NCBI GenBank assembly: GCA_002692065.1
Contig: NZJX01000004.1
Location: 1-56,200, forward strand
Length of the DNA: 56,200 nt
Reading direction: 5' to 3'
Origin: Flavobacteriales bacterium
GTDB lineage: Bacteria > Bacteroidota > Bacteroidia > Flavobacteriales > UBA7430
The notes below the pieces were generated by a model that worked only from the letters and a program-made list of their open reading frames with translations, was not told where the DNA came from and ran no database searches. A program made the translations under genes and the position numbers. Positions 1 through 56,200 of the stretch are shown here, piece by piece. Each line of letters starts with the position of its first letter. The first letter of the stretch is position 1.

Positions 1-3000
1 GAAACACTATTGTCAACTACAGGTAAATTTGATAATCTATATGACTCGTCATTTGAAAGATATTGTAAAACATCTTCATGTTGAAGCTTTAATTGATAAC
101 CTTGACCTGGGTGTAAATCGCCAATACCATTAAAACTCCATTCAGGTAAATATGCTAATCCAGTATAGTCTTTAACAATAATCAAATTGTCAGAGGAAGC
201 AAAATCTGAAAAAACTAAATCTGCTGGGGCAGGCTCAATTCTTAGGTAACCTACCATACTCCAGCCAGATGGTAGACTAACAGAATTTTCCTCAGGGAGC
301 ATATATTGTCCGGTATAACTTAAACTATTGGAATTTAATAGCTTAATTTGATAGCCGTGACCAATTTGACAATCACCTATACCGTTAAAACCCCACTCAG
401 GTAAATATGCTAATCCAGAATTATCTTTAGCAATTATAACATCATCATGTATTTGGTATAACATATCTGCCATATCCATACTTTCAGTATACATGTATGT
501 AGAGAACATACTCCATCCCTCCGGAAGATCTATACTTTGCTCCGTTACGAGAGGAATCGCTTCTATTCCAACTAATACAGAAATTCCATTTATTACAAAT
601 TGATCTTGATTTAAAGCACTTTCAAGATAAGTAGCATTAACCTCTATTTGTGTTTGTGAAGAATTATCCCAAACAAACCAATTAAATTGTTCATCAGCAG
701 AAAAACCATCAATTTCGTCAGTAGTAGTGTCGTCACCTTGAACTGCAACTGCATTATTTTCTCCAGTCCATAAGGTGTAACCACCACATTGTAATTCTCC
801 ATTTGAATCATAGTAAAAAGCCCCAATTGCATCTCCAGATTCTAATTGAACACCTTGATCTAAAGAAACTTGAAGAGTAGCATCAATTACCACAGTGTGA
901 TTGGACCCAGTGATTGAAAAATCCCATGGTACAGAGGAAAAAGTACAAGACCCGTCATCCTCCGTTGCATCTGAATCAAAATTTGAGGCAGAATTATCAG
1001 TACATCCGAAAATTGAGAATATACAAGACCCGTTGTCAATACTAGCATTTGGATTAAAGTTTGATGCTTGAGAATCAGTACATCCAGTTGTACCACCACA
1101 ATATTGAGAGAAATAAATTTGGCCTTCATTACCATCTTCTAAGGTTCCACTTGCAAGATCACATAATTCTTCATATTGCAAAGAAAATTCTCCGCCATTC
1201 CATCCATCACCAAACGAATCAAATAAGTTAAATATAAAACCAGCATTATTATTTGGTAAACATAAATTAACTTGATAAGATTCATTAGTTTCATATCCGT
1301 CTCCTGATAAAATAACATCTCCTGAAGATACATCTTCTATTGACCAGCTAATTTCATATCCAAAGTTTTGAGTGTTCAATGTTAATAAAGCATATACTCC
1401 TTCACATTCAAATATACAAGATTCGTCATCTTGTGTAGCATCTGGATTATAATTGAGTGCTGTTTGATCAATACATCCATATACTGTATAAATACAAGAA
1501 TCATCATCTTGTGTTGCGTCAGGATTATAATTTTCAGCAGATTGATCAGTACATCCTAAAATGTAATCACATGAATTATCATCCTGAGTTGCATCAGGAT
1601 TATAATTTTCAGCTAAAGTGTCAGTACAACCATATACTGGTCCACATTCTCCGTCATAGTTTAAACCAAAAAATAATACGCCTTCATTAACTGAACCTTC
1701 TAGGGTACCATACAATAATAAAGAATCATTACTATTTTGAGTAATAGTTACATAATTATTATTCCAACCATCACCATAAGTATCATACATATTAAAAGAT
1801 AAACACCCTTCATGTAAACACAATTCAGTAAAGCCAACTTCTCCCTGATTACCCTGAAGTTCCCAACTCACTTCATACAAATATGATCCTCCGCCCACAT
1901 CAATTGAAACTCCAATTTCTCCATCAAAACATTCGATTGGAGGATATTCACAATTGTTATCATCTTGTGTTGCATCAGGATTATAATTTACCGCTGTGGT
2001 ATCCATACATCCAAATATGTATGTACAGGAATTATCGTCAATTTCGGCTTCAGAGTTATAATTTTCTGCAATTTCATCAGTACATCCATATACTGGACCA
2101 CATTCTCCTTCATGATTTAATCCGAAAAATAAGACTCCCTCATCAACGTAGCCCTCGAGAGTTCCATATAATAAAGTTAATGAGGAATCTCCCTCAGCTT
2201 GTGTTATTGTAACATAATTATTATTCCAACCATCTCCCCAACTATCATACATATTAAATGAAATACATCCATCTTGGAGGCATGCATCATAATTTCCCAC
2301 TCCACCATCAAATCCTTGAACATCCCAACTTACTTCATTTTGCCAGGTACCCCCACCAACTTCAATTGTTACAGAAGTGCCTTCATTACAAATAATTGTC
2401 TGGCAAGAACCATCGTCAGTATTTGCATTTGGATCATACTCTGCATAATTTGGATTTGTACATCCCAATACTGCAATACATTCACCATCATAATCTAAAC
2501 TGAAAAATAGTGCTCCTTCATCCCCATTCTCAAGAGTTCCCTCTAATAGAATTGAATCATTACTATTTTGAGTTATTACTACAAAATTATCATTCCAGCC
2601 ATCTCCCCAACTATCATACATATTAAATACATAACAAGAGTTATTTAAGACACAGTACTGCATTCCAAGACCTGTACCACCATCATTTCCATCAAACTCC
2701 CAACTTAATTCCCAAGAATAGAATCCTCCTACTACCACATCTACAGTTATTGCTTCGTATCCATCACTACAATTTAAAGTTAAACAAGAACCATCATCTG
2801 TATTTGCATCTGGATTATATTCACCATAATTAGAGTCAGTACAACCTAAAACATAATACTCTCCACAATCACCATCAAAATTTACTCCAACTGAAAACTG
2901 ACCTTCTGAACCACTTTCAAGAGTACCATACAATAATGTCGATTGATTACTATTTTGAGTAATAGTTACATAATTATTATTCCAACCATCACCATATGTA

Positions 3001-5387
3001 TCAAACATATTAAATGTTAAGCATGAAGAGTCTTGAAGACAATATTGCATATCAGATCCAATACCCCCCTCATTTCCATTTAATTCCCAACTTACTTCAT
3101 TTTGCCATGTACCACCTCCAATAGATATATTAACTCCTTCAAAACCTTCATTACACTCGATTAATGGGTACTCACAAGATTCATTTTCTACATTAGCCAA
3201 GGAATCATAATTAGTTGCTAATGGATCTAAACAACCATAAATTGCTTCACATTGTTCCTGTGAATTCAATGAAAAAAAGTGGCTTCCAGAAGTTCCCTCA
3301 GGAGAAATTGTCCAGCCGTAAGAAGGAAGAGAAGCAGTAGTAATGACTGAATCATCTATTGAAAATGTTGCTAAACCTCCATTCCAACCATCACCATAAG
3401 AATCAAACATTTGAAACTGCCAGCATCCATTTTCTAAACAAAAACCGTGGTTCCCTTCAGTTTCTCCAAAAGAATATGATTCTGAATATAAATTTTCATC
3501 ATTGAAAATTAAATTCCAGGAAATTTCACCAAACCAATCACTTCCTGAAATATTTAAAGATACACTATTATAATTATCATCACACTGAAGGGTAACACAA
3601 CTTCCATCATCAATATTAGCATTTGGATTGAATTCTGCATAATTTGGATCCATACAACCATATACTGCAATACATTCTGATTGGAAATTTAAACCAAAAA
3701 ATAATACATCTTCAGATCCACTATCCAATGTACCATCTAACAAGATGTTACCATTAGAATTATTTGATATAACTACCATATTCCCATTCCATCCATCACC
3801 ATATGAATCAAACATTATAAAAGGATAACATGAAGAATCAAGTAGACAATACTGCATATTTAATCCTACTCCACCTTCAATGCCATCCAATTCCCAAGTT
3901 ACTTCATTTTGCCATGTACCACCTCCGAGGTTAATTGTTACTCCCTGATAACCCTCATCACATTCAATTGGAGGATATTCGCAGAGTGAGTTATCTTCTT
4001 CCATAGCTTCTGGATTAAAATTTGAAGCTGTTGGATCCATACATCCCTCAATAGGGCCACACTGATCATAAAAATTTAAAGGAAACCACTCGACATTTTC
4101 AAATCCACTTGTAAAAGTTTCATAAAGTAAAGTTGAATCAATATCTGTTTGATTGATAGAAACATAATTACCATTCCATCCATCACCCCAAGAATCATAC
4201 ATCATAAAAGTATAACACCCATTTGCTAGACAAAATTGACTAGATCCTATGTCTCCTGATAGAAGAACACTTGCCCCAGAGGTATCCACACTACCATCAT
4301 CATTTAAAATTACATTTTCTAGTAATTCCCAGCTTACTTCATTTTGATAATATCCACCACCTATATCAATTGATATGGGAGAAAGATCATTGGAAAGACA
4401 ATTACCAAAACAATCTAATCCTTCTTCAGGTCCGTCACCACCGCATGTACCACACTCATCTAATTCTTGACATGAACCATTATCAAAAACTGCTTGAGGG
4501 TTAAAATTACATGCTGTACTATCTGTACAACCGTAATCACTCGTCACTTCGGCATTACTGATTATCCAATCAAAAGCATATGAAACTCTAGCCCATACTC
4601 CAGGATAATTAACATCAGCACATCCATAGCCCCAACTCGTAGCACCAACTAATAACCATCTAGTATTGTCAGAACTTCTAACAACTAGAGGGCCTCCAGA
4701 ATCTCCTTGGCAAGCATCTTCTCCTCCATCAACTAAATCTCCAGCAGTTATCATAGATTCATGAAGTTGTGAACATGGATAACTTCCAGAATTACCATTT
4801 TCGTCTTGAGCAGCTCCACATGCAACATCATTTTCAACAATTGGTGCTTGAGCCATTTGAAGAGTAGATGCCAAAGGACCTCCAGAAGCTGTTGTTCCCC
4901 ATCCAGTGATTGTAGCCATGACTCCACCATCTTCGCTTCCTGCTGTAACCTCTGATGGATCAATTAAATCAATTTTCTGAACAAAATCAGAATAAATAAA
5001 TGTTCCTTCTATTTCGAGCAATGCAAAGTCATGCGATATACTGGTAGGTGAACCATAACTTGGATGAACAATTATTTGTGAAACTGAATATACATCACCA
5101 CCAATAGCAAAAGATGAAGACTCTCCAGCACGGACAAATAAGTTCGATGGACTAGTCCCATTAACACAGTGAGCAGCAGTTAAAACCCATGAATCACCAA
5201 TAATAGATCCCCCACAAAAACCAGATCCTCCTGGACTTGATGTCAAACCAACTTGCCATGGATAATCTTTTATATTTACATCAACGCCCCCTACTACCCT
5301 CTCTTGAGAAAAAACATTATTTGAAATAAGTGAGTAAAATAATATCAAATAGGATGTTTTAACTATTATTTTTTTAATATTTTGCAT
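1..5387 (-). CDS. Giant secreted trypsin-like (S1A) serine protease with Cys-paired repeats, DSxGDGWN modules and a tandem GWS/GWN-YQIK module; 3' end lies outside the window (>1795 aa)
   Basis: Not in the ORF track because it has no stop in the window. Manual translation from ATG 5387 gives MQNIKKIIVKTSYLILFYSLISNNVFS-QER-VVGG..YPWQV..CGGSII..WVLTAAHC..HDFALL..DACQGDSGGPLV..SWGYGCA..YPGVWARVS. Then come 13 GCxD..C repeats and 8 D(S/T)(Y/W/F)GDGWN modules. The same frame is still open at position 1 (..SYRLSNLPVVDNSVS). Confidence 0.93.
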   Translation of the reverse strand, partial: MQNIKKIIVKTSYLILFYSLISNNVFSQERVVGGVDVNIKDYPWQVGLTSSPGGSGFCGGSIIGDSWVLTAAHCVNGTSPSNLFVRAGESSSFAIGGDVYSVSQIIVHPSYGSPTSISHDFALLEIEGTFIYSDFVQKIDLIDPSEVTAGSEDGGVMATITGWGTTASGGPLASTLQMAQAPIVENDVACGAAQDENGNSGSYPCSQLHESMITAGDLVDGGEDACQGDSGGPLVVRSSDNTRWLLVGATSWGYGCADVNYPGVWARVSYAFDWIISNAEVTSDYGCTDSTACNFNPQAVFDNGSCQELDECGTCGGDGPEEGLDCFGNCLSNDLSPISIDIGGGYYQNEVSWELLENVILNDDGSVDTSGASVLLSGDIGSSQFCLANGCYTFMMYDSWGDGWNGNYVSINQTDIDSTLLYETFTSGFENVEWFPLNFYDQCGPIEGCMDPTASNFNPEAMEEDNSLCEYPPIECDEGYQGVTINLGGGTWQNEVTWELDGIEGGVGLNMQYCLLDSSCYPFIMFDSYGDGWNGNMVVISNNSNGNILLDGTLDSGSEDVLFFGLNFQSECIAVYGCMDPNYAEFNPNANIDDGSCVTLQCDDNYNSVSLNISGSDWFGEISWNLIFNDENLYSESYSFGETEGNHGFCLENGCWQFQMFDSYGDGWNGGLATFSIDDSVITTASLPSYGWTISPEGTSGSHFFSLNSQEQCEAIYGCLDPLATNYDSLANVENESCEYPLIECNEGFEGVNISIGGGTWQNEVSWELNGNEGGIGSDMQYCLQDSSCLTFNMFDTYGDGWNNNYVTITQNSNQSTLLYGTLESGSEGQFSVGVNFDGDCGEYYVLGCTDSNYGEYNPDANTDDGSCLTLNCSDGYEAITVDVVVGGFYSWELSWEFDGNDGGTGLGMQYCVLNNSCYVFNMYDSWGDGWNDNFVVITQNSNDSILLEGTLENGDEGALFFSLDYDGECIAVLGCTNPNYAEYDPNANTDDGSCQTIICNEGTSVTIEVGGGTWQNEVSWDVQGFDGGVGNYDACLQDGCISFNMYDSWGDGWNNNYVTITQAEGDSSLTLLYGTLEGYVDEGVLFFGLNHEGECGPVYGCTDEIAENYNSEAEIDDNSCTYIFGCMDTTAVNYNPDATQDDNNCEYPPIECFDGEIGVSIDVGGGSYLYEVSWELQGNQGEVGFTELCLHEGCLSFNMYDTYGDGWNNNYVTITQNSNDSLLLYGTLEGSVNEGVLFFGLNYDGECGPVYGCTDTLAENYNPDATQDDNSCDYILGCTDQSAENYNPDATQDDDSCIYTVYGCIDQTALNYNPDATQDDESCIFECEGVYALLTLNTQNFGYEISWSIEDVSSGDVILSGDGYETNESYQVNLCLPNNNAGFIFNLFDSFGDGWNGGEFSLQYEELCDLASGTLEDGNEGQIYFSQYCGGTTGCTDSQASNFNPNASIDNGSCIFSIFGCTDNSASNFDSDATEDDGSCTFSSVPWDFSITGSNHTVVIDATLQVSLDQGVQLESGDAIGAFYYDSNGELQCGGYTLWTGENNAVAVQGDDTTTDEIDGFSADEQFNWFVWDNSSQTQIEVNATYLESALNQDQFVINGISVLVGIEAIPLVTEQSIDLPEGWSMFSTYMYTESMDMADMLYQIHDDVIIAKDNSGLAYLPEWGFNGIGDCQIGHGYQIKLLNSNSLSYTGQYMLPEENSVSLPSGWSMVGYLRIEPAPADLVFSDFASSDNLIIVKDYTGLAYLPEWSFNGIGDLHPGQGYQLKLQHEDVLQYLSNDESYRLSNLPVVDNSV
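950..4540 (-). repeat. Coding array of alternating Cys-paired repeats and ~100-aa DSxGDGWN modules in the protease
   Basis: D(S/T)xGDGWN near 4180, 3795, 3390, 2990, 2600, 2235, 1770 and 1205 (period ~390-460 bp); shared DNA such as ACTTCATTTTGCCA.GTACC near 2335, 3095 and 3900. Confidence 0.85.
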
Positions 5388-11368: not shown

Positions 11369-11376
11369 ACTTTTAA

Positions 11377-14148
11377 ATGAATAAGTATATAGTATTTGTT
11401 TTTACTTTTTTAATTTGTAAAAATTTAAATGCTCAAAATATAATTTCAGGATATATTTACGATTTAGATTCTAAAGAATCTTTAATTGGGGCTAATGTTA
11501 TAGTTAATGAAAAAAAGATTGGAACTGTAACTAATTATAACGGTTTTTTTAAATTAAACCTTCCTAGTGGGATATTTAATCTTACTATTTCTTACGTTGG
11601 GTACAAAGCTGTAAATAAGAGAATTGAAGTCAGAGAATCTAAATCAATTGATTTTTTTCTGGAAACTGAAATTTTAGACGAAATTTTTTTGATTTCAGAC
11701 TTTGCCAGAAGTAGAGAAACCCCAGTTGCATTTTCTAATATTTCACCAAAACAAATTGAAGAAGAATTAGCAAATCAGGATATTCCTCTTATCCTAAATA
11801 ATACTCCAGGAGTTTACGCAACTCAAAGTGGGGGTGGAGATGGAGATGCAAGAATATCTATTAGGGGGTTCAATCAAAGAAATATTGCAGTTTTAATAGA
11901 TGGAGTCCCAGTCAATGATATGGAAAATGGTTGGGTATATTGGTCTAATTGGTTTGGACTCGATATTATGACAAAAACCATACAGGTTCAAAGAGGTCTA
12001 GGAGCATCTAAACTTGCAATTCCTGCTGTTGGTGGAACTTTAAATATTTTAACTAAAGGAGTTGATAATGTTAAAAAAACTATTTTTTCAGAGAATATTG
12101 GTAATAATGGATTATTAAGAACTACTATAGGGCACAACAGTGGGAAATTAAAAAATGGTTGGGGGTACTCAATTGCAGGATCATACAAAAGAGGTAATGG
12201 ATGGGTTGATCAAACATGGACTGAAGGATTTTTTTATTACCTAAAACTTGAAAAAAAAATAAAAAACCATAAAATTTCACTTTCTGCGTTTGGAGCACCT
12301 CAGCAACATGGTCAAAGATCTTACAGGAAAGAAATAGTTCTATATGATAAATCATATGCTTCAGGGTTAGGAATAGATACTACAAATGTCGTTGGTGATT
12401 TTGGTCTTAGATATAATGAACACTGGGGGGAATTAAACAGATACACAGTGATTTTTGATGAAAATGATAACCCAATTGATACTTTATTTAGAGAAAATGA
12501 AAAAATAAATTCTAAAAAAAATTATTATCACAAGCCTCAAATAAGTTTAAATCATTTTTGGAGTAAATCTGATAAATTGATTATTTCAAATGTAATTTAT
12601 GCATCTTTTGGCTCTGGAGGTGGAACTGGAATTACTCCAAGTGTAACTCAAGAATCAGGTGGTTTTGATCAAAATAGACAAATAAATTTTCAATCTATTT
12701 TTAATAATAATTCTGGTAATACTAGACATCCTTTTTTTGGGGACTTTTCAATAGACCCACTTTATAGTCTAACAGAACATAAATCAACTCAAATTCTAAG
12801 AAGTTCAATTAATAATCATAAATGGTTTGGATTATTAACTACTTACAATTACGAATTTAATGAAAACTATACATTATCAGGAGGAATAGATTTAAGAAAG
12901 TATACAGGAGAGCATTACAGAGAAGTTTATGATCTATTAGGAGGAGATTATTTTGTTAGTAATGAAATTGCTGCGGTAGATAGTAATAATATTTTAAGAA
13001 AAGGAGATAAATTTGCATATCACAATGATGGTTTAGTTAAATGGGGGGGGGTATTCCAACAAGTTGAGTTTGATAATACGAATTGGTCAGCTTTTGTAAG
13101 TTTCTCACTTTCATCTTCTGGATATAAAAGAATTGATTACTTTAAACCCTTAGATCTTGTTCTAGAAGACACAACTATTAATCAGATATTATCAATTGGT
13201 GACACATTTATATATAAAAATAATAGCTATACTACTGAATCAAAAGAAGCAAGATTTGCTCAAACTGACTGGAAATGGATTCCTGCTTTTACATTTAAGT
13301 ATGGATTTAATTATAACATCAATGAGTTTCATAATTTTTTTATGAATTCTGGTTTCCTAACAAAAGCTCCCAGATTCAATAATGTTTACGACTTTGATAA
13401 TAGTCTATTTGAAAATATTAAAAATGAACAAATTGCTGCTATTGAACTTGGTCATAGTTATCATAGTGATAAATTTACTACTAATTTAAACCTTTATAAT
13501 ACACAATGGAAAAACAAACCTCAATCAGGAAGTACTATTTTAGATGGAGATTTTGTCAATTACAACATAAATGGAATTGATGCACTTCATCAAGGAATTG
13601 AATTTGACTTTGTTATGAGATTTTCACAAAAATATGAACTCGAATTTTTAAGCTCAATTGGAAATTGGAAATGGACATCTGGAGATAGCATTAGAAGTTA
13701 TGATCAAAATAATAATTTATTAGCTGTAGATTATTTTGATGCAACTGGTGTTCATGTAGGTGACGCTGCTCAATTACAAGTTGGTTCTAGTTTCAAATTT
13801 AAACCAAATAAAAATTCCTACGTGAAATTGAGATTTATGAGGTTTGCAAACCACTATTCGGATTTTAATCCATTTGATTTAAAAGGAGAAAATGCTGGTC
13901 GTGATTCATGGAAAACACCTGCATATGCTCTCTTTGACCTCCATGCTGGATATTCATTAAAAATTAAGAGAACTTTAATAGATTTTAAATTTAATATCCT
14001 AAATTTACTAAACACAATTTATATAACTGATGCATTAAATAATGATGCCTATATACCTGGAAATGAATTTAACTTTGATGCAAGTTCCGCATCGGTCTTC
14101 TTTGGAATGGGTAGAAGGTTTTCAACTTCAATAAAAATTTCTTTTTGA
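11377..14148 (+). CDS. TonB-dependent receptor
   Basis: Signal peptide; N-terminal CarboxypepD_reg-like domain (ESLIGANV); plug (IRGFNQ..VLIDGVPVND..IQVQRG..GGTLNI); beta-barrel ending in Phe. Confidence 0.95.
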   Translation: MNKYIVFVFTFLICKNLNAQNIISGYIYDLDSKESLIGANVIVNEKKIGTVTNYNGFFKLNLPSGIFNLTISYVGYKAVNKRIEVRESKSIDFFLETEILDEIFLISDFARSRETPVAFSNISPKQIEEELANQDIPLILNNTPGVYATQSGGGDGDARISIRGFNQRNIAVLIDGVPVNDMENGWVYWSNWFGLDIMTKTIQVQRGLGASKLAIPAVGGTLNILTKGVDNVKKTIFSENIGNNGLLRTTIGHNSGKLKNGWGYSIAGSYKRGNGWVDQTWTEGFFYYLKLEKKIKNHKISLSAFGAPQQHGQRSYRKEIVLYDKSYASGLGIDTTNVVGDFGLRYNEHWGELNRYTVIFDENDNPIDTLFRENEKINSKKNYYHKPQISLNHFWSKSDKLIISNVIYASFGSGGGTGITPSVTQESGGFDQNRQINFQSIFNNNSGNTRHPFFGDFSIDPLYSLTEHKSTQILRSSINNHKWFGLLTTYNYEFNENYTLSGGIDLRKYTGEHYREVYDLLGGDYFVSNEIAAVDSNNILRKGDKFAYHNDGLVKWGGVFQQVEFDNTNWSAFVSFSLSSSGYKRIDYFKPLDLVLEDTTINQILSIGDTFIYKNNSYTTESKEARFAQTDWKWIPAFTFKYGFNYNINEFHNFFMNSGFLTKAPRFNNVYDFDNSLFENIKNEQIAAIELGHSYHSDKFTTNLNLYNTQWKNKPQSGSTILDGDFVNYNINGIDALHQGIEFDFVMRFSQKYELEFLSSIGNWKWTSGDSIRSYDQNNNLLAVDYFDATGVHVGDAAQLQVGSSFKFKPNKNSYVKLRFMRFANHYSDFNPFDLKGENAGRDSWKTPAYALFDLHAGYSLKIKRTLIDFKFNILNLLNTIYITDALNNDAYIPGNEFNFDASSASVFFGMGRRFSTSIKISF

Positions 14149-14149
14149 C

Positions 14150-17100
14150 ATGAAAAAACATTTATTAATATTATACTTTATTACATTAAATTCAATTTTT
14201 GTAAATTCCCAAAATTCTAATTACTATGAAAATTCCCAAAATTTAGTTGGTGAAGATCTTAAGGAATCTCTTCATAATCTAATTAAAAATCATAATGAGT
14301 TTTCTTACAGTTCTAGTAAACAAATTTTAAAATTAAGTGATGAAGATCCTGCTAATTCCTCAAATATAATACTCATTTATAAAGGGAATTCGATTAATAA
14401 AGATGATTTTGCATCTAACATGGAGCCAAACTTTTGGAATAGGGAACATGTTTGGGTTAAATCACAAGGAGGATTTAATGGTGATGAAACATACGGGAAT
14501 AAAGGTGCTTACAGCGATGCCCATAATCTAAAACCTTGTGATGCAACAATCAATTCAGATAGAGGTACCAAAGATTTTGATAATGGAGGAGTTCCAAACT
14601 CTGAAGCAGTAAATTGTAATTTTACTAGTACAACTTGGGAACCAAGAGATGAAGTGAAAGGAGATGTTGCTAGAATTATTTTTTATATGGATGTCAGATA
14701 CAACGGGGCTGAAGGAGAACCAAATTTGTCGGTGGTAGACTATATTAATAACTCATCTACTCCTTTCCATGGAAAACTTTCAACTCTTCTTGAATGGAAT
14801 GAAATTGACCCTGTTGATGCATTTGAAAGAAGAAGAAATCAAGTAATTTTTAATTGGCAACAAAATAGAAACCCATTTGTTGACTATCCTGATTTTGCAA
14901 ATTTAATTTGGGGAAACTCCTCACCCAATTCCTTGGGGTTTAATGAAGTAAATTTAGAATATTCCAATCCTAGTGAAATTCAAAGCCAAAGTATTTCAGT
15001 AGATATTTCTAATTCATTTATTACCCCAATTGATCAAGTTGAACTTAGATATGCTTCATCATGGTTCGACATTTATGATGATAATGGAATTATCGAAGAA
15101 TACAATTCTTTGATGACATTAAATAGTGAAACAGGTCTTTATGAAGGTAATATTCCTAGTTTCCCGGAAGGAACAGATGTAAAATATACTATCACAATAA
15201 GATTAGATAGCTTTAATAATACTTTCTATGGAAATTATAAAGTTGCTTTAAATCCATTTGAAGGAGAGTTAATATCTATACAAGATGTTCAGGGAAATTC
15301 AGATTACTCACCATATGAGAATGAGACAATATCTACAAAAGGAGTTGTAACAGCAGTTATTGGAGATGATTTCTATATCCAAGATGGTACTTCTCCAAGA
15401 AGTGGGATATATGTTTATACTTCTCCCGTAATTCCCTCTTTGGGTGACAGCGTAATAGTAACTGGGGAAGTTTCAGAATTCCAATGGGAAGATCCAACTG
15501 ATGAAAAAATGACTGAGTTAGCTTATCCAGATGCCGTATATATTCTTAATTCAAATAATCCAATTCCTGAACCTGTTGATATAGAAACTGGCAATCTGAA
15601 TTCGGAAGATTTTGAGGGAATGCTAGTAAAAGTTAATAATGTTACTGTAACTTATGCAACTTTTAACTTTGATGACTATGGACAATGGAAAGTTGATGAT
15701 GGTTCTGGTCAATGTAATATTCACAATACGATTGAAGGATATGAATACCCTGCTGTAGTAGGTGAATACTTATCTTCAATAACTGGGGTTAGTAACTATT
15801 TATTTGGTGAGTGGAAAATTGATTTACGAATGCCTGACGATGTTGATGGTGCTCCGGATACTTTTGCTCCATCAATAGTTAGTTGCGAAGTAATAAACGA
15901 AAGTTCAATTAACTTAATTTTTAATGAAGATTTAGATGAAACTTCTGCTGAAAACATCGAAAATTATTCAATTAATAACAATGTAATAATTAATTCTGCT
16001 AATCAAAATCTTTTTCAAAAATCCAGAGTGGTTTTAAGCGTTTCAAATTTATTAACAGGTAATTACGTTCTAACAATATCTAATGTTGAAGACTTACTTG
16101 GCAATTATATAGTAAATGAAACAATTTCTTTTGACTTCATTGAACTTAATGATCAAATATTGGGGTGTACTGATATAAATGCATTAAATTTTAATGAATT
16201 AGCTAATATTGACGATGGCTCATGCGAATATAATTCAAATCCTATTTTTGAAAAATCATTATTTTTCTCAGAATATGCTGAAGGTAGTTCTTATAATAAA
16301 TATCTTGAAATATATAATCCTACCAATGAGAAAATTAGTCTAGATAATTATGGATTCCCTAGCTGTGCAAATGATCCAACTGATCAAATTTCAATTGGGC
16401 CTCATGAATACTGGAATAATTTCCCACAAGGAGCAGAAATAGAATCTCAAGAAGTTTATATTATAGCTCATCCTCAAGCTGATGACTACATATATGATTT
16501 AGCTGACCATTTTCATCAATATTTAAGTAATGGGAATGATGGATATGCACTAGTTTATGGGACCGAAGAAAATTATGAAATTATTGATAAAATTGGTGAT
16601 TGGGTTGAAGATCCAGGAAATGGTTGGGATGTTGCTGGAGTTAGTGATGCTACTATGGATCACACTTTAATTAGAAAATGTGAAATTAGTAGTGGTAATT
16701 CAGATTGGAATTCATCAGCTGGTACTAATGCAGAAAATTCTGAGTGGATTGTCAATAATAACGAAGATTGGTCAAATCTAGGAATACATAATATTTGTTA
16801 TGATCAAATCATTTTTGGTTGTACTGATGAAAATTCAATAAATTATAATCCTAATGCAACTTTAGATGATGGAAGTTGTATTGATCCAATATTTGGATGC
16901 ATGGATTCTACTTACCAAGAATATGATCCTATGGCAAATGTAAATAATCCAGATGATTGTTTAAATCTTATAGGAATCCATAAAATAAATTTTAATGAAA
17001 GCTTTAAACTTTTTCCAAATCCTAGCGATCAATTAATTAATCTAGTTGCTAATAACAACTTTAAAAAAATTAATATTAGTATTACAAATAATATTGGGAT

Positions 17101-17242
17101 ATTAGTATCAAAAATTGAATTCGGAAATATGAAACAAAATGACAAAATTCAAATTGATATATCTGAACTCAAATCTGGCTTTTATTATATAATTTTAAAT
17201 TCACGAGAATTAAATGTGAGTAGCTACTTTGTGAAAAACTAA
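14150..17242 (+). CDS. Secreted endonuclease I / Bsn-family nuclease with OB-fold region, Ig-like domain, LTD, Cys-paired repeats and T9SS CTD
   Basis: [26 protein letters not shown] and [22 protein letters not shown] (His-Me finger); [35 protein letters not shown] and EGMLV (ExeM-like OB folds); [12 protein letters not shown]; FPNPS CTD. Confidence 0.92.
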
Positions 17243-18921: not shown

Positions 18922-19033
18922 CAATTTAGTTATACTTATGCAAAGTAAACAAACTTTAATTGAAAACTTAAATTATTATTTAAATTTACTTTATTTAGCA
19001 TAATTAGTATATTTTTATTTAAAAGTTAGATTA

Positions 19034-29265: not shown

Positions 29266-29271
29266 TTTTCT

Positions 29272-29279
29272 CAAAAATA
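29272..29279 (-). promoter_or_regulatory. -7 box TATTTTTG, 6 nt before the leuS ATG
   Basis: TAnnTTTG match on the minus strand. Confidence 0.55.
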
Positions 29280-31075: not shown

Positions 31076-34000
31076 ATGAAAAAATATATTTTAATTCTCT
31101 TTTTTTCAAATTTAATATTCTGTAATAATTTATATCCCCAGTGTGGAATTATTGACTCTGAAATTTTAATTCTTAATCAAGAAGATTTTTTATCATACTC
31201 TAATTGCGAATCTATTGATGGTAACGTCGTAATTAACGGAGAAAATATAGATTCGTTAATTTTTTCTAATTTAATATCAATTAATGGTAATTTAAATATT
31301 TTTAATACCAATATTACCTCAATTGCACCATTATCTAGTTTAATGAATGTTAATGAAATTAATATATATAATATTAATCTTTTAGATAACTGCTGTTCAT
31401 CACTTAACTGGCAATCACTAATTGAACTTGGGACTATATCAAATTTAAATATTCACTCCAACTCAACTAATTGTAGTTCAACTATAAGTATAAATATCTC
31501 ATGTTTAGGTCTCTTAGAAGGGTGTACGGATAGTAACTCTTTAAACTTCAATCCATTAGCTACAATTGATGATAATAGTTGTTTAAACGGTCCTGATCTT
31601 CAAGTATCTGCATCAGCTATTATAAATTCTCTGGAAATAAGTACTTTTAATAGTGAAGATAATTGTTTAGTAGCTGAGGGATGTATTTCAGGAATTGGAA
31701 ATAGGAAAATATTAAAATTCACAACAACAATCTCAAATTATGGGAATGAAGATTTTTATATTGGTGAAACTGGGGGAGCTGAAAATTTAAATGAAAATTT
31801 TTACTGGGATGATTGTCATGGTCACGCTCATTATGAGGGTTATGCCAATTATAAGCTATTTTATTACCCATCCTTAGAACAACATCCAACAATTGGACAT
31901 AAAAATGGTTGGTGTGTTATGGACTTAGGTAATGCCGTTACTTCTGAAGCCCCAGATAATGCTAATTATCCTCAATGTGAGTTTGAATACGGATGTTCCA
32001 TCATGGGTATAAGTGCTGGATGTTCCGACACTTATGGATCTGGGTTATCATGTCAATGGGTAGATATTACAGATTTATATGATGGTCAATATATTTTAGG
32101 AGTCTCTACTAATATGGAAACTGAGAATTATACTCCTCAATATGAAACTAATTATTCAAACAATTCAGTATATATATTATTTGAATTTGAAAATAATGAA
32201 ATTATTTCAGTTTCCCATTTTGATGACAATTCTATAACTGAAAATTGTACTATAGATATTGATAATTCTGAATTTGGATTTCATATCTCCAACGAAAATA
32301 ACTTCCTTTATGCTTTTACAAACGAATTTTTCAATGAATCTATTCAAATTAATATTAGTGATAGTATTAATATTAATAATGATGTTTTTGTAATTGACTC
32401 ATTAATAATTAATGATATAACTAATTTACCAGATAGTATTGAATGGAATTGCAGTAACGAAAATTGTACTTTTTATCCTGGTAATTCTTGTCTTGGAATT
32501 TATGGTATTACAACTTATACAGGTGAGTTTTCGCTCATATTTAATTCAACTTTATATTTATCGGATGATAATGACTTATCATCAATAATAAATATTCCAA
32601 ATATATTTCAAAATAATGAACCTGATTTAGAAGAAAATTTAATTAACAACGAAAGCAGTTTAAATGATTTAGATCCAAACTTTACTATATTGATAACTGA
32701 TCCAATATATGGTTGTATAGACTCATTTGCTCTAAATTTTGATAATAATTCAAATTTCGATGATGGTTCTTGTATTTTTCCAAATATTGGATGTACTGAC
32801 TCATTTGCTCTAAATTTTGATAGTTTTGCAAATATCGAAGATGGTTCTTGCGAATACTGTACAGAGGGGATAGAATGGATTGTTAAAATGAATTTATTTG
32901 ACTCATATGGTGACGGATGGAATGGGAATAACTACTACATCATTGATGATCAAAATGATACCATAATCGAAGGAACTCTAGATGATGGTTACGAAGGTGA
33001 AAACTTATTTTGCCTATCTCCGGGGTGTTATTCTATAAGTGTCCCAAATGAAAATCCTTGGCCATATGAAATTTCATGGGAGTTGTCAGCTCAAGGATTC
33101 TCTGAAGTAAACTTAAATGGTGATTGTCCTGATTTAGTTCCATTTAACTTTTTAAGTGATTGTGATTTCAGTATAGGTTGTACAGATTCTTCTGCATTAA
33201 ATTATGATAGTACTGCAGTATTTAATAATGAAGAATGTATATACCCTCTTTTTGGTTGCATTGATTCATCAGCATTAAATTATAATACTAATGCAAATTA
33301 TAGTGATTCTAGTTGTGTATATCCTAATCTATGTAATAATAATGAGAATTCTTTAGTTTTATTTTTATTTGATTCATATGGTGATGGTTGGAATGGAAAT
33401 AACCTCACATTATACAATTCTAGTTATGATTCAATAATTTTTGAAACAACATTAGACTCTGGATATGAGGGAATTGAGACCTTATGTTTAGATAATGAAT
33501 GTTATTTGATATCTGTGACTGGAGGAAATTGGCAAAGCGAAATTACATGGGAAATTAAAAGTACAACTGATGAATTAATTTTAAATGGCAATTCTCCATT
33601 AACCAGCTTTTTTGGTCTAAACTCAACATGTGACTCAATATTTGGATGTTCAAATCCATCTGCAATAAACTATAATCCAAGTGCAGGTTCAGATGACTTT
33701 TCTTGTATTTTTGAATCTTCAGCATGCGAGGACAATTATAATTTAATTAATTTAGAACTTCAAACAGATCCGTATCCAAATGAAACATCTTGGTCAATAA
33801 CAAATGATGAAAATGATACTCTGATTTTTATTGATTATTATGAAAATCAAAATGCTCTGTATTCTGATTCATTCTGCGTTCCACAAAATATATCTCTGAA
33901 CTTTAATCTATATGACTCATATGGTGATGGTCTCACAAGTGGTGCGGGAAATGGAGAATTTAAATTCTTTGTCTGTGGTTTACAAGTATTTTCAGGGTCA

Positions 34001-35101
34001 AGTTTTGAATATCAATTTTCAGGAAATTTTCATGACTGTGAAGGAACATCTATTAGTATCTATGGATGTACAGACAGTATAGCCTTAAATTATAATTTGA
34101 ATGCTAATTATAATAATGGTTCTTGTGAATATGGTGAAATTTTTGGCTGTACAGACGAATTTGCAATTAATTTTAATCCAATGGCTAATATAGATGATGA
34201 TCAATGTGAATATATTTATTGCGATTCAAATAATCACATAATTGAATTAAATATACAAAATACAAATTATGAGAATAATCCTAATATTGAGTATTCAATT
34301 TTATCATTAAATAATCAATCATTATCTTATGATAGTTTATCCAACATAATAAATTTCACTCATTATTATTGCTTAGAGGCTGGATGCTATATATTTTATC
34401 CGAATAATGTCTCAGAAAATCAGTCATACAGCTGGTCTATAAGCTCTGGAAATAAAAAAATAATTTCAGGAGATAATGAAAATAAGACAAGTTTTGAAAT
34501 AAGCTCCATTTGTAACTTAAATTTTGGATGTAATGATGAAAATGCCTTAAATTTTGATTACAGTTCAAATTATAACGATAGTACTTGTATTTATAATGAT
34601 TCCTTAGTAATAAATTTAACAGACGGGTGGAATATGGTTTCTTCATATATTCAATCAGAAAATATGAATATAATTAATCTCACAAATAATATTTTAAATG
34701 AAATTATAATAATAAAAAATAATATAGGTTTAGTCTTCATTCCAGAGTGGAATTTTAATTCAATTGGTAATTGGTCAAATTATGAGGGTTATCAAATAAA
34801 AGTTTCAAATAATTGTGATATAACTTTCTATGGTCAAGCTCTTGTTCCTGAGGAAAATCCTATAATGTTAAATCAAGGTTGGAATTTAATTAGTTATTTT
34901 AGGCAAAATGAGGCTTCGGTAGAAGGTATTTTCTCATTAATAAATAATAATATAATAATAGTTAAAAACTCAATAGGACTTGCTTACTTGCCAGATTGGG
35001 GTTATAATGGAATAGGAAATTTTGAACCAGGTCAAGGGTATCAAATAAAAATGATTATCAATGATGAATTAAATTATTTACCAAATAACTTAAATTATTA
35101 A
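31076..35101 (+). CDS. Large secreted protein: receptor-L-like domain, lysyl-oxidase domain, Cys-paired repeats, DSYGDG modules, C-terminal tandem GWN-YQIK module
   Basis: Signal peptide; LOX motifs [63 protein letters not shown]; 9 GCxD..C repeats; no YPNP-type CTD. Confidence 0.9.
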
Positions 35102-51777: not shown

Positions 51778-51957
51778 TTAATTTAAAACAGAAGTAATAA
51801 AACTTTTGATTTCATTATTTCGTACTTCTATATGAAATTCTATCGGATTACAACAAACTTCACAATCTTCAATAAATGACTGATTTGAAATTGAATAATC
51901 AACCAACTTTAACTGATTTGCGTCACAATAGGGGCAATAAAAAAAATATTCTAACAA
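51778..51957 (-). CDS. CPXCG-motif cysteine-rich small protein
   Basis: CPYC..VD.S..QS.IEDC.VCC.PI; the likely start is TTG 51957 just after the upstream gene's stop, because the track's longer N-terminus overlaps that gene. Confidence 0.8.
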   Translation of the reverse strand: MLEYFFYCPYCDANQLKLVDYSISNQSFIEDCEVCCNPIEFHIEVRNNEIKSFITSVLN

Positions 51958-51967
51958 GACTAATAAA

Positions 51968-54900
51968 TCAAAATGATATTGAAAAGCTAGTATTAACCTT
52001 AATTTGATATCCAGATCCAGGAGTAAAATTGCCAATCGAATTATAATTAAACTCAGGCCAATATTGGTCTCCGTTATTATCTTTCATAATATCAATATAA
52101 TTATCATTTTCTCCAAGAACTTGACTGATATCAATAATTTCATTTGAACAATATCCAAACATATTCCAACCCTCTTGAAATACGATATTAATTGTATCGC
52201 ATTGAAAATTTTGATTTGATAAATTTATTTGAGAATTTAAAGAATCTAATTGATTTAGAAGTATATTCTGTAAATCTATAACATTTGAATATGCCTCACC
52301 CCAGCTATTTGAACATGAATTATCATCAATATTTGCATTTGAATTGAAGTTTATAAAATTATCATCTGTACAACCCAAAATATTTGAAGTTTCATCATTT
52401 TCTATGTCGGTATTACCAAAAACTAATGAAAAAGGTGAATTAACCTTAATTTGATATCCAGATCCAGGAGTAAAATCTCCTATTGAATTATAATTAAATT
52501 CTGGCCAATACTGATCTCCATTATTATCCTTTAATATTTCTATATAATCATCAAAATCTTTCATTACTTCACCAATATCATTTGGGGTTGAAGCTGTGTA
52601 GCCAAACATATTCCATCCTACTTGAAACTGAACAGTAATCGCACATTGATTAGCAATTACTGAATCAATATGATATTCAATTGACGAAATTTCATCATAT
52701 AAATTAAAATTCATACTTTCTACTGTAGTATATCCTAATTCCCAAGATGTATTGCAAGTACCATCATCAACATTTGCATTTGTATTGAATTCCATATAAT
52801 TAGCATCCATACAACCCAAAATTATACCAATACATGAGCCATTATCAAAATTAGCATTGGGGTCAAAATTTAAAGCATTGGGATCAATACATCCATTGAC
52901 AATATAAATGCAAGAGCCATCATCTACATTGGCTTCTGAATTATAATTATTTGCTAAAAAATCCATGCATCCTAAGTTTATATTAATACAAGAACCATCA
53001 TCAGCATTTGCATGTGAATTAAAATTCAATGAATTAAAGTCCGTACATCCATAAACCATATCAATACATGATCCATTATCAAAATTAGCATTATCATCAT
53101 AATTAAATGCATTTAAATCTGTACAACCAAAAATCAGTTCAATACATGAATTATCGTCAATATTAGCATCTGGATTATAATTTAATGATCCAGAAGTTGT
53201 ACACCCAAGAATGATTTCTTGACAAGAACCATCATCCTCAGTTGCATTCATATTATAATTTAAGGAATTTGGATTCATACATCCCGATATAGGATATCTG
53301 CACGATCCGTCATCTAAATTTGCATTTGGATCAAAGTTTAATGCATTTGAAAATATACATCCTAATATGACTTCTTCACATGATCCATCATTTGTATTTG
53401 CTGAAGGGTTGTAGTTAATTGCATTTAAATTAATACACCCTAAAATTATATCCTCACATGAATAGTCATCAGTATTAGCTGAAGGATTGAAATTAAATGC
53501 TAAAGGATCTGTACAGCCTAATGAGATTGCTTGACAAGAACCATTATCAGTATTAGCAAAAGCATCATAATTAAAAGAGTTAAGATTAATACATCCCAAT
53601 ACTACATCAATACAACTTCCATCATTAAAATTTGATATTGAATTATAATTAAATGCATTAATATCAGTGCAACCTGGTATTACTTCTATACAACTTCCAT
53701 CATCTTCATTTGCTAAATTAAAATAATTTAATGCTAGAGGATCTGTACAACCAAAAATAGAGGGATAAATACAAGAATTATTGTCAACATTTGCCCCAGG
53801 ATCATAATTGCTTGCTATTTCGTCCATACAGCCTAAAATTATACATGTTCCATCTTCAATATTTGCATTTGGATTGTAATTTTCAGCAATAGAATTCATA
53901 CATCCTGAAATTTCTATTAAACAAGAACCATTATCTTGAGTAGCTAAAAAATTATAATTAGATGCTGATATGTTAGTACATCCAAGAATAATTAAAATGC
54001 AAGAGTTATCGTCAACATTTGCAAATGAATCATAATTTTCAGCACTAGGATTTGTACATCCTAGAATTATACAAGAACCGTCATCTTCATTTGCTTCAGG
54101 ATTATAATTAGACGCTATTGGATCTATACATCCTAATACAATATATGTACAAGATGAATCATTTGTGTTTGCTTCAAAATTATAATTAGATGCCAGAAAG
54201 TCTGTACATCCAAATATAATATCAATACAAGATCCATTATCTGTATTTGCTTCAGAATTGTAATTAAATGATAGCGGATTTATACATCCATAAATTATTG
54301 GAATACAAGTACCATCATCTGTATTTGCTTCAGAATTGTAATTAAATGATAGCGGATTTATACATCCTAAAGTTATATCTTCACATGATCCATCATCTGT
54401 ATTTGCCTCAGAATTATAATTATATGATAGCGGATTTATACATCCTAAAGTTATATCTTCACATGATCCATCATCTGTATTTGCTTCAGAATTAAAATTA
54501 TATGATAAACCATTTGTACAACCCAAAATAATATCCTCACAAGATCCATCATCTGTATTTGCCTCAGAATTATAATTATATGATGAACTATTAATACATC
54601 CCATCACAACCGATATACATGACCCATTATCAGTTGTGGCTTGGGAGTTGTAATTGAATGATAATCTATCCGTACATCCCTCAATAATGCATGAATTATC
54701 ATCTTGTGTTGCGTCTAGATCATAATTCAAAGCAATAGGATTCATACACCCAGAATATGTACACGATGAATTATCCACTAAATAAATACCTTGATTTATA
54801 ACATTCTGCAATGAACTGCTAAAGTTAGTTGAATTTGGATCGGCATATGAAATATAATTATTTGCTTGATCATCTATGCAAATTAAATTACTAGAGATTC

Positions 54901-56200
54901 TATTTAAATTGAATAACCCAGAAAATTGACAAGATCCATCATCTTCATTTGCAGCAGGATTGAAATTTGAAGCAAAAGGAACCACACATCCAGGGACAGA
55001 GTACAAACATAAATTATCTTCTGTATTTGCTAGAGAATTATAATTGAATGCTAATTCATCCATACATCCATAAATTACTGGGATACAAGAGTTATCCTCA
55101 GTATTTGCTAGAGAGTTATAATTGAATGCAAGAGGATTTAAACACCCATACAGGAATCCAACACAAGATCCATCATCTGTATTTGCCTGAGAATTATAGT
55201 TGAAGGCTCCAGGAGAAACACAACCATATTGCACAGGTTCACATACACCATTGTCAGTATTTGCAATTGGATCATAATTAAAAGCATTTGGATTTGTACA
55301 ACCATATATGTAACCTTCACATGTTCCATCATCTGTATTTGCCTCAGAACTATAATTGTATGCCCCCTCGTTTAAACATCCATAAATTACTGGGATACAA
55401 CTACTATCATCAATATTTGCAACAGAATTATAATTGAAGGCATCCATATTTGTACATCCAAGAATTACTTCAATACACGATCCATCATCTGTATTTGCCT
55501 GAGAATTATAATTAAAGGCTAATTCATCCATACATCCGCTTATAACTGGTATACAACTTCCATCATCAATATTAACTTGTGAATCAAAATTAAATGCATT
55601 GGGATTATTACATCCATAGATAATATTCACACATGACTCATCATCCGTATTAGCCTGAGAATTATAATTTAATGCTAATTCATCTAAACATCCATAAATT
55701 ATTGCCTCACAGGATTGATCATTTACATTTGCAAGCGGATTATAATTGAACGCTTGGGGATTTGTACAACCATTTACTATTAATACACAAGATCCATCAT
55801 CTGTATTTGCCTGAGAATTGTAATTGAACGCTAATTCATCCATACAACCATCAACAACTGGTATACATGAATCATCATTCGTATTTGCTTGAGAATTATA
55901 ATTGAAGGCTATAGGATTCATACATCCTAAAATTATATCTTCACATGTTCCATCATCTGTATTTGCCTGAGAATTATAATTGGACGCTAATTCATCCATA
56001 CAACCATCAACAACTGGTATACATGAATCATCATTCATATTTGCTTGAGAATTATAATTGAACGCTTGGGGATTCATACATCCAAGAATTACTTCAATAC
56101 ACGATCCATCATCTGTATTTGCCTGAGAATTATAATTGAACGCTAATTCATCCATACAACCATCAACAACTGGTATACATGAATCATCATTCGTATTTGC
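51968..56200 (-). CDS. Giant Cys-paired tandem-repeat protein with a duplicated C-terminal GWN-YQIK module; 5' end lies outside the window (>1410 aa)
   Basis: The frame stays open from 56200 (ANTNDDSCIPVVDGC-MDELA..); about 44 units of ~26 aa; ends ..PGSGYQIKVNTSFSISF. Confidence 0.92.
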   Translation of the reverse strand, partial: ANTNDDSCIPVVDGCMDELAFNYNSQANTDDGSCIEVILGCMNPQAFNYNSQANMNDDSCIPVVDGCMDELASNYNSQANTDDGTCEDIILGCMNPIAFNYNSQANTNDDSCIPVVDGCMDELAFNYNSQANTDDGSCVLIVNGCTNPQAFNYNPLANVNDQSCEAIIYGCLDELALNYNSQANTDDESCVNIIYGCNNPNAFNFDSQVNIDDGSCIPVISGCMDELAFNYNSQANTDDGSCIEVILGCTNMDAFNYNSVANIDDSSCIPVIYGCLNEGAYNYSSEANTDDGTCEGYIYGCTNPNAFNYDPIANTDNGVCEPVQYGCVSPGAFNYNSQANTDDGSCVGFLYGCLNPLAFNYNSLANTEDNSCIPVIYGCMDELAFNYNSLANTEDNLCLYSVPGCVVPFASNFNPAANEDDGSCQFSGLFNLNRISSNLICIDDQANNYISYADPNSTNFSSSLQNVINQGIYLVDNSSCTYSGCMNPIALNYDLDATQDDNSCIIEGCTDRLSFNYNSQATTDNGSCISVVMGCINSSSYNYNSEANTDDGSCEDIILGCTNGLSYNFNSEANTDDGSCEDITLGCINPLSYNYNSEANTDDGSCEDITLGCINPLSFNYNSEANTDDGTCIPIIYGCINPLSFNYNSEANTDNGSCIDIIFGCTDFLASNYNFEANTNDSSCTYIVLGCIDPIASNYNPEANEDDGSCIILGCTNPSAENYDSFANVDDNSCILIILGCTNISASNYNFLATQDNGSCLIEISGCMNSIAENYNPNANIEDGTCIILGCMDEIASNYDPGANVDNNSCIYPSIFGCTDPLALNYFNLANEDDGSCIEVIPGCTDINAFNYNSISNFNDGSCIDVVLGCINLNSFNYDAFANTDNGSCQAISLGCTDPLAFNFNPSANTDDYSCEDIILGCINLNAINYNPSANTNDGSCEEVILGCIFSNALNFDPNANLDDGSCRYPISGCMNPNSLNYNMNATEDDGSCQEIILGCTTSGSLNYNPDANIDDNSCIELIFGCTDLNAFNYDDNANFDNGSCIDMVYGCTDFNSLNFNSHANADDGSCININLGCMDFLANNYNSEANVDDGSCIYIVNGCIDPNALNFDPNANFDNGSCIGIILGCMDANYMEFNTNANVDDGTCNTSWELGYTTVESMNFNLYDEISSIEYHIDSVIANQCAITVQFQVGWNMFGYTASTPNDIGEVMKDFDDYIEILKDNNGDQYWPEFNYNSIGDFTPGSGYQIKVNSPFSLVFGNTDIENDETSNILGCTDDNFINFNSNANIDDNSCSNSWGEAYSNVIDLQNILLNQLDSLNSQINLSNQNFQCDTINIVFQEGWNMFGYCSNEIIDISQVLGENDNYIDIMKDNNGDQYWPEFNYNSIGNFTPGSGYQIKVNTSFSISF
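51992..52476 (-). repeat. 447-bp-period internal duplication of the C-terminal module
   Basis: Identical 38-mer ATTAACCTTAATTTGATATCCAGATCCAGGAGTAAAAT at 51992-52029 and 52439-52476. Confidence 0.9.
52750..56200 (-). repeat. Coding tandem array of ~78-bp units (GCxD/NxxAxNY/FxxxANxDDGSC)
   Basis: About 43 consecutive units, one with an insertion near 54760-54890. Near-identical DNA copies at ~54230-54580. A 156-bp A/B dimer at ~55720-56200 (56104-56200 vs 55792-55888 differ at one base by eye). Confidence 0.95.

Follow-up and report, generated by a model that had tools for sequence, protein, structure and literature searches.

Modular, putatively exported proteins built from uncatalogued repeats in a marine Flavobacteriales genome

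Cargo proteins with a type A sorting domain leave the cell in a folded state through the type IX secretion system (T9SS), and their C-terminal end can serve to attach them to the cell surface. In Porphyromonas gingivalis, such cargo includes surface proteases, a peptidyl-arginine deiminase (PAD) and an M14 carboxypeptidase, and the large repetitive surface adhesin SprB of Flavobacterium johnsoniae is another T9SS protein. We analysed contig NZJX01000004.1 of a Flavobacteriales bacterium (GTDB lineage UBA7430, GenBank assembly GCA_002692065.1), on which five genes encode proteins assembled from a small set of shared, repeated modules. T9SS proteins of these general kinds, modular surface enzymes and long repetitive adhesins, are already known; the building blocks described here are uncatalogued and very abundant in marine data. 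We consider it probable (roughly 0.68) that the five genes are part of a repertoire, specific to the lineage, of modular proteins exported to the cell surface or the extracellular space, with their heads displayed on stalks of a two-cysteine repeat.

The window analysed is the whole contig (56.2 kb, with a G+C content of about 28%), taken from a genome assembly of 1.65 Mb in 21 contigs that is 92% complete, with 6.8% contamination. Four modules are distinguished below: the two-cysteine unit (R), the GDGWN module (G), the GWN..YQIK module (T) and a fourth module (X). Hidden Markov models (HMMs) were made from the copies in the window and then run on all the contigs of the genome; the R copies in the window were counted with a regular expression and with an HMM built from the units.

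Module content of five proteins and its distribution

The five genes and their modules, in window coordinates, are as follows.

3..5387, minus strand: P0001, protease gene (1795 amino acids (aa), C-terminus lost at the contig end)
4563..5297, minus strand: trypsin domain of P0001 (residues 31-275; Pfam PF00089, E = 3.2e-51)
936..4538, minus strand: R/G array of P0001, with predicted G beta-sandwiches of about 105 aa, each between 25-aa R units
543..938, minus strand: X module of P0001, with motifs like TGSN..V.I and GDDxTTxxxDG and without a Pfam match
30..560, minus strand: T pair of P0001 (GWN..YQIK twice), followed by 13 residues to the contig end
10310..11368, plus strand: P0002, lamin-tail domain (LTD) protein, with a putative signal peptide, the LTD (E = 4.1e-12), one R and a T9SS type A sorting domain
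11033-11092, plus strand: single R of P0002, directly before the sorting domain
11135-11353, plus strand: type A sorting domain of P0002 (E = 2e-10)
14150..17242, plus strand: P0003, nuclease, with a putative signal peptide, Endonuclease I, ExeM/NucH-like and weaker LTD regions, three R and a type A sorting domain
14249-14890, plus strand: Endonuclease_1 domain of P0003 (Pfam, E = 6.7e-38)
17009-17218, plus strand: type A sorting domain of P0003 (E = 2.3e-9)
31076..35101, plus strand: P0004, lysyl-oxidase (LOX) protein, with a putative signal peptide, one R, the LOX domain, an R/G array and a T pair, without a sorting domain
31649-32203, plus strand: Lysyl_oxidase domain of P0004 (Pfam, E = 3.4e-22)
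32705-34594, plus strand: R/G array of P0004
34583-35098, plus strand: T pair of P0004, the final residue of the protein being the last residue of the second T (T2)
51968..56200, minus strand: P0005, R-array protein (1410 aa, N-terminus lost at the contig end), with 43 R followed by T-R-T, without a sorting domain
51971-52660, minus strand: C-terminal T-R-T of P0005

All five frames translated without stops. A preliminary description of this DNA, made from its sequence without database searches, had proposed five genes sharing the R unit, and all of these frames were recovered, the first as 3-5387. It had counted 13, 1, 3, 9 and about 44 R copies; we found 13 in P0001, 1 in P0002, 3 in P0003, 9 in P0004 (nine matches to the regular expression, one of them spurious, and nine real units with the HMM) and 43 in P0005, and its last figure is right if a partial unit cut at the very start of the P0005 frame is included. 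The trypsin, LTD, endonuclease I and lysyl oxidase heads were likewise borne out by Pfam matches. The proposed DSxGDGWN modules were present in the protease and LOX proteins (eight GDGW motifs in P0001 and three in P0004, where the HMM added a fourth, degenerate copy), and the paired GWN-YQIK module occurred twice in each of three proteins.

P0001 consists of a putative signal peptide, the trypsin head, 13 R alternating with eight G, one X and the T pair. The N-termini of P0001-P0004 followed the usual basic-hydrophobic-SQ/AQ pattern of signal peptides when read by eye. The type A sorting domain (PF18962/TIGR04183) was found in P0002 and P0003 and was absent from P0004 and P0005, the C-terminus of P0001 being cut. 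A Pfam scan of the P0005 frame, with its cut N-terminus, found no head domain. This protein, presented earlier as "pure-repeat" with an "unknown head", looks headless because the contig end removes its N-terminus, and that part of the earlier account does not stand. The missing N-terminus could lie in one of two frames running off other contigs, C14 (23972-26467) or C20 (9747-14273).

Across the genome, R was found in 46 frames, G in nine and T in 24. Together, these 53 frames held 411 R, 25 G and 37 T copies and 47,574 residues, or 8.6% of the genome, counts that are upper bounds and somewhat inflated, because some frames are duplicated between contigs and the assembly has 6.8% contamination. 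The longest R arrays had 70 and 89 units, the latter in the largest frame (7059 aa; X-R(89)-sorting domain). Contig ends fall within genes with R arrays or T cassettes at both ends of the window (1-30 and 56170-56200) and on C1, C2, C3, C13, C14, C18, C19 and C20, and such arrays and cassettes therefore break the assembly.

None of the four modules matched a Pfam or NCBIfam model, even at E ≤ 10 or 1. PHROGs returned nothing for five module sequences, X among them, and the literature searched, which did not cover subscription papers and supplements, contained no description of these modules. Among 108 non-module segments of the module frames, Pfam identified Por_Secre_tail seven times, LTD three times and Peptidase_C25, Trypsin, Endonuclease_1 and CUB twice each; M14, PAD_porph, LOX, PKD, GH2 and a plastocyanin-like domain, among others, were matched once, and most segments had no match. 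The type A sorting domain PF18962 had 41 matches in the genome and was held by 14 of 55 module frames. The type B domain PF13585 (CHU_C) had 13 matches above the cut-off, none of which lay in a frame with R, G, T or X when coordinates were compared by eye. Cohesin (PF00963) and dockerin (PF00404) had no match in the five window proteins at E ≤ 0.01, and neither was among the 25 of 32 Pfam families listed for the 108 segments.

R and T were both present in all 16 sampled genomes of the same family, with 14-42 T matches per genome and 30-159 matches to a four-unit R profile. In 14 other families of the order, T was found in two and R in five, including those two. Among 150 genomes sampled evenly from the phylum, four carried R (two families) and 12 carried T (about ten families, with 1-3 copies each), with no overlap. 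Because the two sets of genomes do not overlap across the phylum, R and T can be regarded as independent modules that were combined and amplified in this lineage. The earlier proposal of a toolkit of shuffled modules on exported proteins is supported by the 53 frames of this genome and by all 16 genomes of the family; R and T occurred together throughout the sampled family but not in the phylum-wide sample.

R-rich proteins were abundant in marine metagenomes, with at least 5,491 clusters in the band from 775 to 2468 aa. About 105 of the 120 clusters listed had PF18962, and one came from a candidate-phylum bacterium. The named public records with a T pair were marine metagenome-assembled genomes (MAGs) labelled Flavobacteriales, Cryomorphaceae and the like. 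The LOX gene encoding P0004 was present in marine and seawater metagenome runs from several studies, and contigs of three marine metatranscriptome libraries covered 15, 23 and 16 of its 30 bins, with a likeness of 92-99%. These contigs were not counted as showing transcription, because DNA carry-over is possible and several of them continue into unlike sequence.

The module proteins resemble the T9SS type A cargo described above in having a signal-peptide-like N-terminus, an N-terminal enzyme and a C-terminal PF18962/TIGR04183 domain (P0002 and P0003). C25, PAD_porph and M14 domains are also found among the module proteins of the genome, which encodes SprA (SprA_N match in a 2410-aa frame, E = 4.9e-167). 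They differ from this cargo in that their linking modules, R, G, X and T, are uncatalogued, and in that 16 frames of the genome, as well as two of the five proteins in the window, end in T without a recognised sorting domain. In their great length, their many repeats and the T9SS sorting domain at the C-terminus, proteins such as the 7059-aa frame recall SprB-type adhesins. Nevertheless, R differs from the Pfam SprB repeat, which had no match in the window proteins, and the sorting domain here is of type A rather than type B.

The R, G and X modules

R is a very acidic unit of 25 aa with two cysteines that are invariant even in lone units. The pattern GC..[NE][YF]..C occurred 407 times in the six-frame open reading frames of the genome; the reversed sequences contained none, and five shuffles contained 1-3 each. 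The window had 69 occurrences, and its reversed frames had none. In P0005, the spacing between units was 26 aa in 36 of 42 intervals. R arrays are extremely acidic, with 162 Asp and Glu versus 3 Lys and Arg in 1150 residues, together with 188 Asn. Conserved Asp/Asn positions recurred in each unit. The acidity of the arrays is compatible with cation binding and is the sole evidence for the Ca2+ binding suggested in the preliminary description, without amounting to proof; a four-unit stretch had no TSP_3, TSP3_bac, Dockerin_1 or EF-hand match, even at E ≤ 10.

A search of the PDB with the four-unit R profile matched positions 332-353 of the perforin-2/MPEG1 chain (E = 6.5e-4 for the human protein, 6u23_A, and 4.1e-3 for the mouse protein, 6sb3_A). 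This stretch reproduces almost the whole R consensus and scored 42.2 bits on the single-unit HMM, within the range obtained for the units of the window (33.6-62.2, n = 68) and above the median for 342 units of other contigs (34.2). In PMC6989145, the region between the MACPF and P2 domains of perforin-2 is termed a truncated EGF-like hinge, at the end of which positions 332-353 would lie. The likeness is that of one 22-residue unit with two cysteines between two globular domains (PDB 6u23, 6sb3; PMC6989145); the difference is that the unit is present as a single copy in an animal pore-forming protein, versus up to 89 tandem copies in exported bacterial proteins. Because one unit matches this hinge, R is probably a small spacer module; the likeness need not reflect common descent. 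A disulfide within each unit, as proposed earlier, is a sound inference, since both cysteines are invariant even in lone units, one unit matches the EGF-like hinge and the proteins have putative signal peptides. One other PDB match, that of P0005 to an F-box/LRR protein (its sole match with phmmer), followed a periodic Cys and Leu pattern and was rejected as compositional. Queries of the ESM Atlas with R and with the T pair returned only unnamed clusters, the nearest named rows (0.75-0.77) being at chance level.

Every G was flanked by R units. In an AlphaFold model of an R-R-G-R-R-R segment, G (about 105 aa) was predicted to be a beta-sandwich; the predicted local distance difference test (pLDDT) score was 83-96 in the R-G-R core block and averaged 78.0 overall. 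Foldseek returned no match for the R-G-R model at E ≤ 0.001. With respect to calcium-dependent modules of the CBM36/CBM60 type (PDB 2xhh, 2xfd), G is similar in being modelled as a small beta-sandwich and in occurring with two block orders, which recall the circular permutation described for those modules. No sequence match to them was found, and its fold scores lie in the range of unrelated beta-sandwiches (for 2xhh, VIA Z score of 6.6, root-mean-square deviation (rmsd) of 2.6 over 81 residues, Foldseek probability of 0.84 and E of 0.08). The changed block order was seen by eye in copies 1-2 of P0004 (window 32783-33500, plus strand) and in a frame of contig 8 (L010 4379-6340): compared with the copies in the protease, DSYGDGWN leads and the W..E.SWE block trails, an apparent permutation. 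The HMM coordinates lend weak support to a circular permutation (i-E of 0.5-1 for the displaced block).

X, of about 130 aa, was recognised in the sequence after T in some proteins and was found in 24 frames of the genome. It is the usual N-terminal head of the R-array proteins, which open with X right behind the putative signal peptide and close with a type A sorting domain (for example, X-RRR-sorting domain), and it also occurs before and after T pairs. No remnant of X was found in the window outside the P0001 copy. Identification of X with cohesin was considered for P0113, a distant T-pair homologue, and was rejected: the cohesin matches (residues 725-852) are a long way from the X of this protein.

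The T module and the genes around the module genes

T is an alpha/beta module of about 85 aa, present as a pair in each of P0001, P0004 and P0005. A model of the pair based on 12 paralogues (pLDDT of 94.1, predicted template modelling score (pTM) of 0.87) packed the two T tightly against each other. Foldseek returned no PDB match for this model at E ≤ 0.001, and no VIA-wide match reached a Z score of 5; the best was 4.2 (rmsd of 3.0, 70 residues aligned, an HPr chain), and RCK-C also scored about 4. On the basis of this model, T has no clear relative among solved structures, and we do not claim a new fold. An exhaustive profile search gave 13,470 representative clusters for the T family at E ≤ 1e-3, 7,672 at 1e-10 and 1,696 at 1e-30. 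The T-pair homologues carry lysyl oxidase, C25 peptidase, GH18, GH16, M14, M43, endonuclease I and trypsin heads, or are LVIVD proteins.

The length of the tail after the pair was sharply clustered. In the best 120 homologues, the tail after T2 was no longer than 15 aa (mostly 0-1) in 75, 16-120 aa in one and 121-260 aa in 44. In 144 further representatives, the tail was no longer than 15 aa in 77, 151-190 aa (peak at 175-176) in 29 and 191-240 aa (peak at 214-218) in 32, the other six falling outside these ranges. In the long tails, X precedes either a type A sorting domain or a shorter stretch, of about 40 aa, that resembles one, and X was found after T in 57 of the 63 representatives with a tail of more than 150 aa. 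Tails of 176 aa (P0013, P0016, P0054, P0078, P0099 and P0102) have X and then some 40 conserved residues that look like a sorting domain cut short, with no PF18962 recorded. Eight listed LOX homologues from other assemblies (P0007-P0012, P0018 and P0029) have a T pair-X-sorting domain arrangement; P0004 stops right after T2 (stop codon at 35099-35101), and these eight run on for 215-217 aa.

The weaker T copies (33-36% identity) on contigs labelled Bdellovibrionales and Myxococcota also form pairs at or near C-termini. On two such contigs (L032 and L033), the MAG labels of which may be wrong, neighbouring T-pair genes are of two kinds, one of about 300 aa ending with the pair and the other of about 600 aa in which the pair is followed by a Lys-rich low-complexity tail. 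A metagenomic protein of 3424 aa (P0284) has five T pairs along its length and no R, G or X detectable with the HMMs. Export as lipoproteins was considered for the T-terminal proteins of the genome and was rejected, because their N-termini resemble ordinary signal peptides. Lipoprotein-like signals were seen in three small R proteins only (C11:21718-22320, C16:7463-8125 and C17:42027-42902), with R soon after the Cys.

Given the tight packing of the two T in the model, the single T, present in 11 frames, was examined for pairing between chains. With an alignment of 11 paralogues, the single T was predicted to form a homodimer with an interface score (ipSAE) of 0.73 (0.73, 0.68 and 0.75 in individual runs), versus 0.00 for the best of three controls. 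The partner had a pLDDT of 87-90, and the contacts agreed 100% across runs; of the proteins used for calibration, 20 of 30 solved as pairs of one chain reached the mark, as did 1 of 23 solved singly. The predicted interface comprises residues 16-22 and 65-70, corresponding to the GWNMIG and GYQIK motifs. A single T is thus predicted to homodimerise through its two conserved motifs, a prediction that covers homotypic pairing only. This is the one result that leans towards an assembly, and it concerns the tail module, not the repeats. T could also be simply a structural dimerising domain.

One further gene lies between those for P0002 and P0003.

11377..14148, plus strand: TonB-dependent receptor gene (Plug and CarbopepD_reg_2 matches)

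The genes for the LTD protein, this receptor and the endonuclease I/LTD/ExeM-like protein are arranged head to tail on one strand (window 10310-17242), and, judging from the predicted products, this stretch looks like a locus for extracellular DNA breakdown and uptake of the products. The description of the module genes as unlinked therefore fails for 10310-11368 and 14150-17242, which flank the receptor gene. The other large genes on this contig have housekeeping functions. Interspersed with the module genes are four for aminoacyl-tRNA synthetases (Tyr, Met, Leu and class II) and one for an S46 dipeptidyl-peptidase (6535-7809, 17239-18924, 26488-29274, 29389-30909 and 40838-43021); the peptidase fits a peptide-based diet.

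Explanations for the repertoire and its meaning

In the interpretation we favour, a streamlined marine Flavobacteriales with a T9SS would have combined ordinary heads, catalytic or binding, with four or more uncatalogued modules by shuffling. R would be a small, probably disulfide-closed, EGF-like spacer, single copies of which link globular modules and tandem arrays of which form long stalks. G and X would be beta-rich accessory modules, most likely binding something, and T would pack on a second T via its two conserved motifs, within the chain when paired and, as predicted, between chains when single. Where present, the type A sorting domain would direct export by the T9SS and tie the C-terminus to the cell surface, placing the N-terminal head (trypsin, endonuclease I, LTD or, in the array proteins, X) at the distal tip of the R stalk. 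A distal head connected by R is suggested because the sorting domain is C-terminal, the heads are N-terminal and R lies between globular modules; this polarity agrees with the display away from the cell envisaged in the preliminary description, which is plausible. The enzymes, presented there as polymer-acting, do act mostly on protein and nucleic acid, and the set as annotated (trypsin, C25, M14, PAD, LOX and endonuclease I) points to scavenging of these two polymers.

Several results weigh against this interpretation. The assembly is redundant, with identical or near-identical module-bearing frames on separate contigs (C2/C5/C20, C1/C7 and C10/C19). The perforin-2 match is short (22 residues) and is one of sequence alone. 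Tandem R units flanking the R-G-R core were poorly predicted (pLDDT of 41-57), so the shape of an R array is not given by the model, and the best fold matches of G were middling (Z score of 6.6, for a Bacteroides nuclear magnetic resonance structure and for the CBM36/60 permutant 2xhh). Moreover, 16 of the 24 T-bearing frames of the genome, including P0004 and P0005, end no more than three residues after T and lack a sorting domain of either type (A or B), and the results do not explain the route of these 16 proteins across the outer membrane.

These T-terminal frames bear on another explanation, in which T, single or paired, would be a C-terminal sorting or attachment device for cargo without a classical sorting domain, either recognised directly by the T9SS or a surface component, or riding along with partners that bear T and a sorting domain. 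The 16 frames have signal-peptide-like N-termini and exoenzyme heads, chitinase, GH16, M14, C25 and endonuclease I homologues likewise end in a T pair, and in 75 of 120 homologues and 77 of 144 further representatives no more than 15 residues, usually 0-1, follow T2. Export of folded proteins by the T9SS and the predicted T-T pairing would also suit such a device. However, the pair is internal in 44 of the 120 and 61 of the 144, followed by X and a type A or short sorting-like end, and is therefore not the signal in those proteins. The modelled fold, a mixture of helices and strands with HPr and RCK-C as best matches (Z score of about 4), provided no beta-sandwich like that of a sorting domain, and C-terminal T pairs also occur on the contigs labelled Bdellovibrionales and Myxococcota, phyla in which a T9SS is not known. 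We regard both the device and its two possible routes as unlikely. The R arrays might instead be the functional part, as polyanionic, cation-binding or adhesive repeats for particles, minerals, polysaccharide gels or cells, with the heads secondary. Their extreme composition, their length of up to 89 units, the conserved Asp/Asn positions in all units and the abundance of the repeat in marine metagenomes would favour such a role. A binding role is nevertheless hard to see for a lone R between unrelated modules, no metal-binding family was matched even at E ≤ 10, and the single solved counterpart is a hinge between domains (PMC6989145). We consider this reading improbable.

The scaffold idea of the preliminary description, in which enzymes bearing R or T would dock non-covalently on R-array scaffolds to form cellulosome-like complexes acting on protein and nucleic acid, fared worse. 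As in a cellulosome, diverse enzymes have a non-catalytic terminal module in common, long repetitive non-catalytic proteins exist and the terminal module is predicted to self-associate; P0113 also has Pfam cohesin domains, and P0284 has its five T pairs. Unlike the components of a cellulosome, the five window proteins have no cohesin or dockerin match, and protein and DNA would be the substrates. R is found on supposed scaffold and enzymes alike, which leaves no complementary pair; the supposed scaffold, P0005, has the tail of the enzymes and is truncated at its N-terminus, and those R-array proteins that are complete each bring an X head and a sorting domain of their own, as enzymes do. According to the model, the interface motifs of a paired T would be satisfied within the chain. 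R and T are also uncoupled in the phylum (four genomes with R and 12 with T among 150, and none with both). Docking on R-array scaffolds is thus highly improbable. An assembly of another kind can be imagined, in which T would be a new C-terminal pairing device and enzymes with a single T or a T pair and no sorting domain (LOX, M14, C25, GH18, GH16 and endonuclease I) would be held at the surface by partners with T, X and a T9SS sorting domain, giving a coat assembled non-covalently on acidic R stalks. We hold this to be a doubtful conjecture. If true, the T-T coat would be a functional analogue of the cellulosome made from other parts and aimed at protein and DNA.

The role of T is a more interesting subject than the scaffold idea, which is unsupported: its exact C-terminal position on enzymes with no known sorting domain raises the question of how such cargo exits the cell. 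The perforin-2 match provides a first structural handle on R and unexpectedly links a stalk repeat of bacteria to an immune protein of animals. Marine Flavobacteriales with small genomes count among the main consumers of high-molecular-weight organic matter, and about 8.6% of the sequence of this genome is spent on proteins composed of modules that are unnamed in public family libraries. Naming and characterising these modules would bring annotation to a sizeable share of the protein "dark matter" of the sea.

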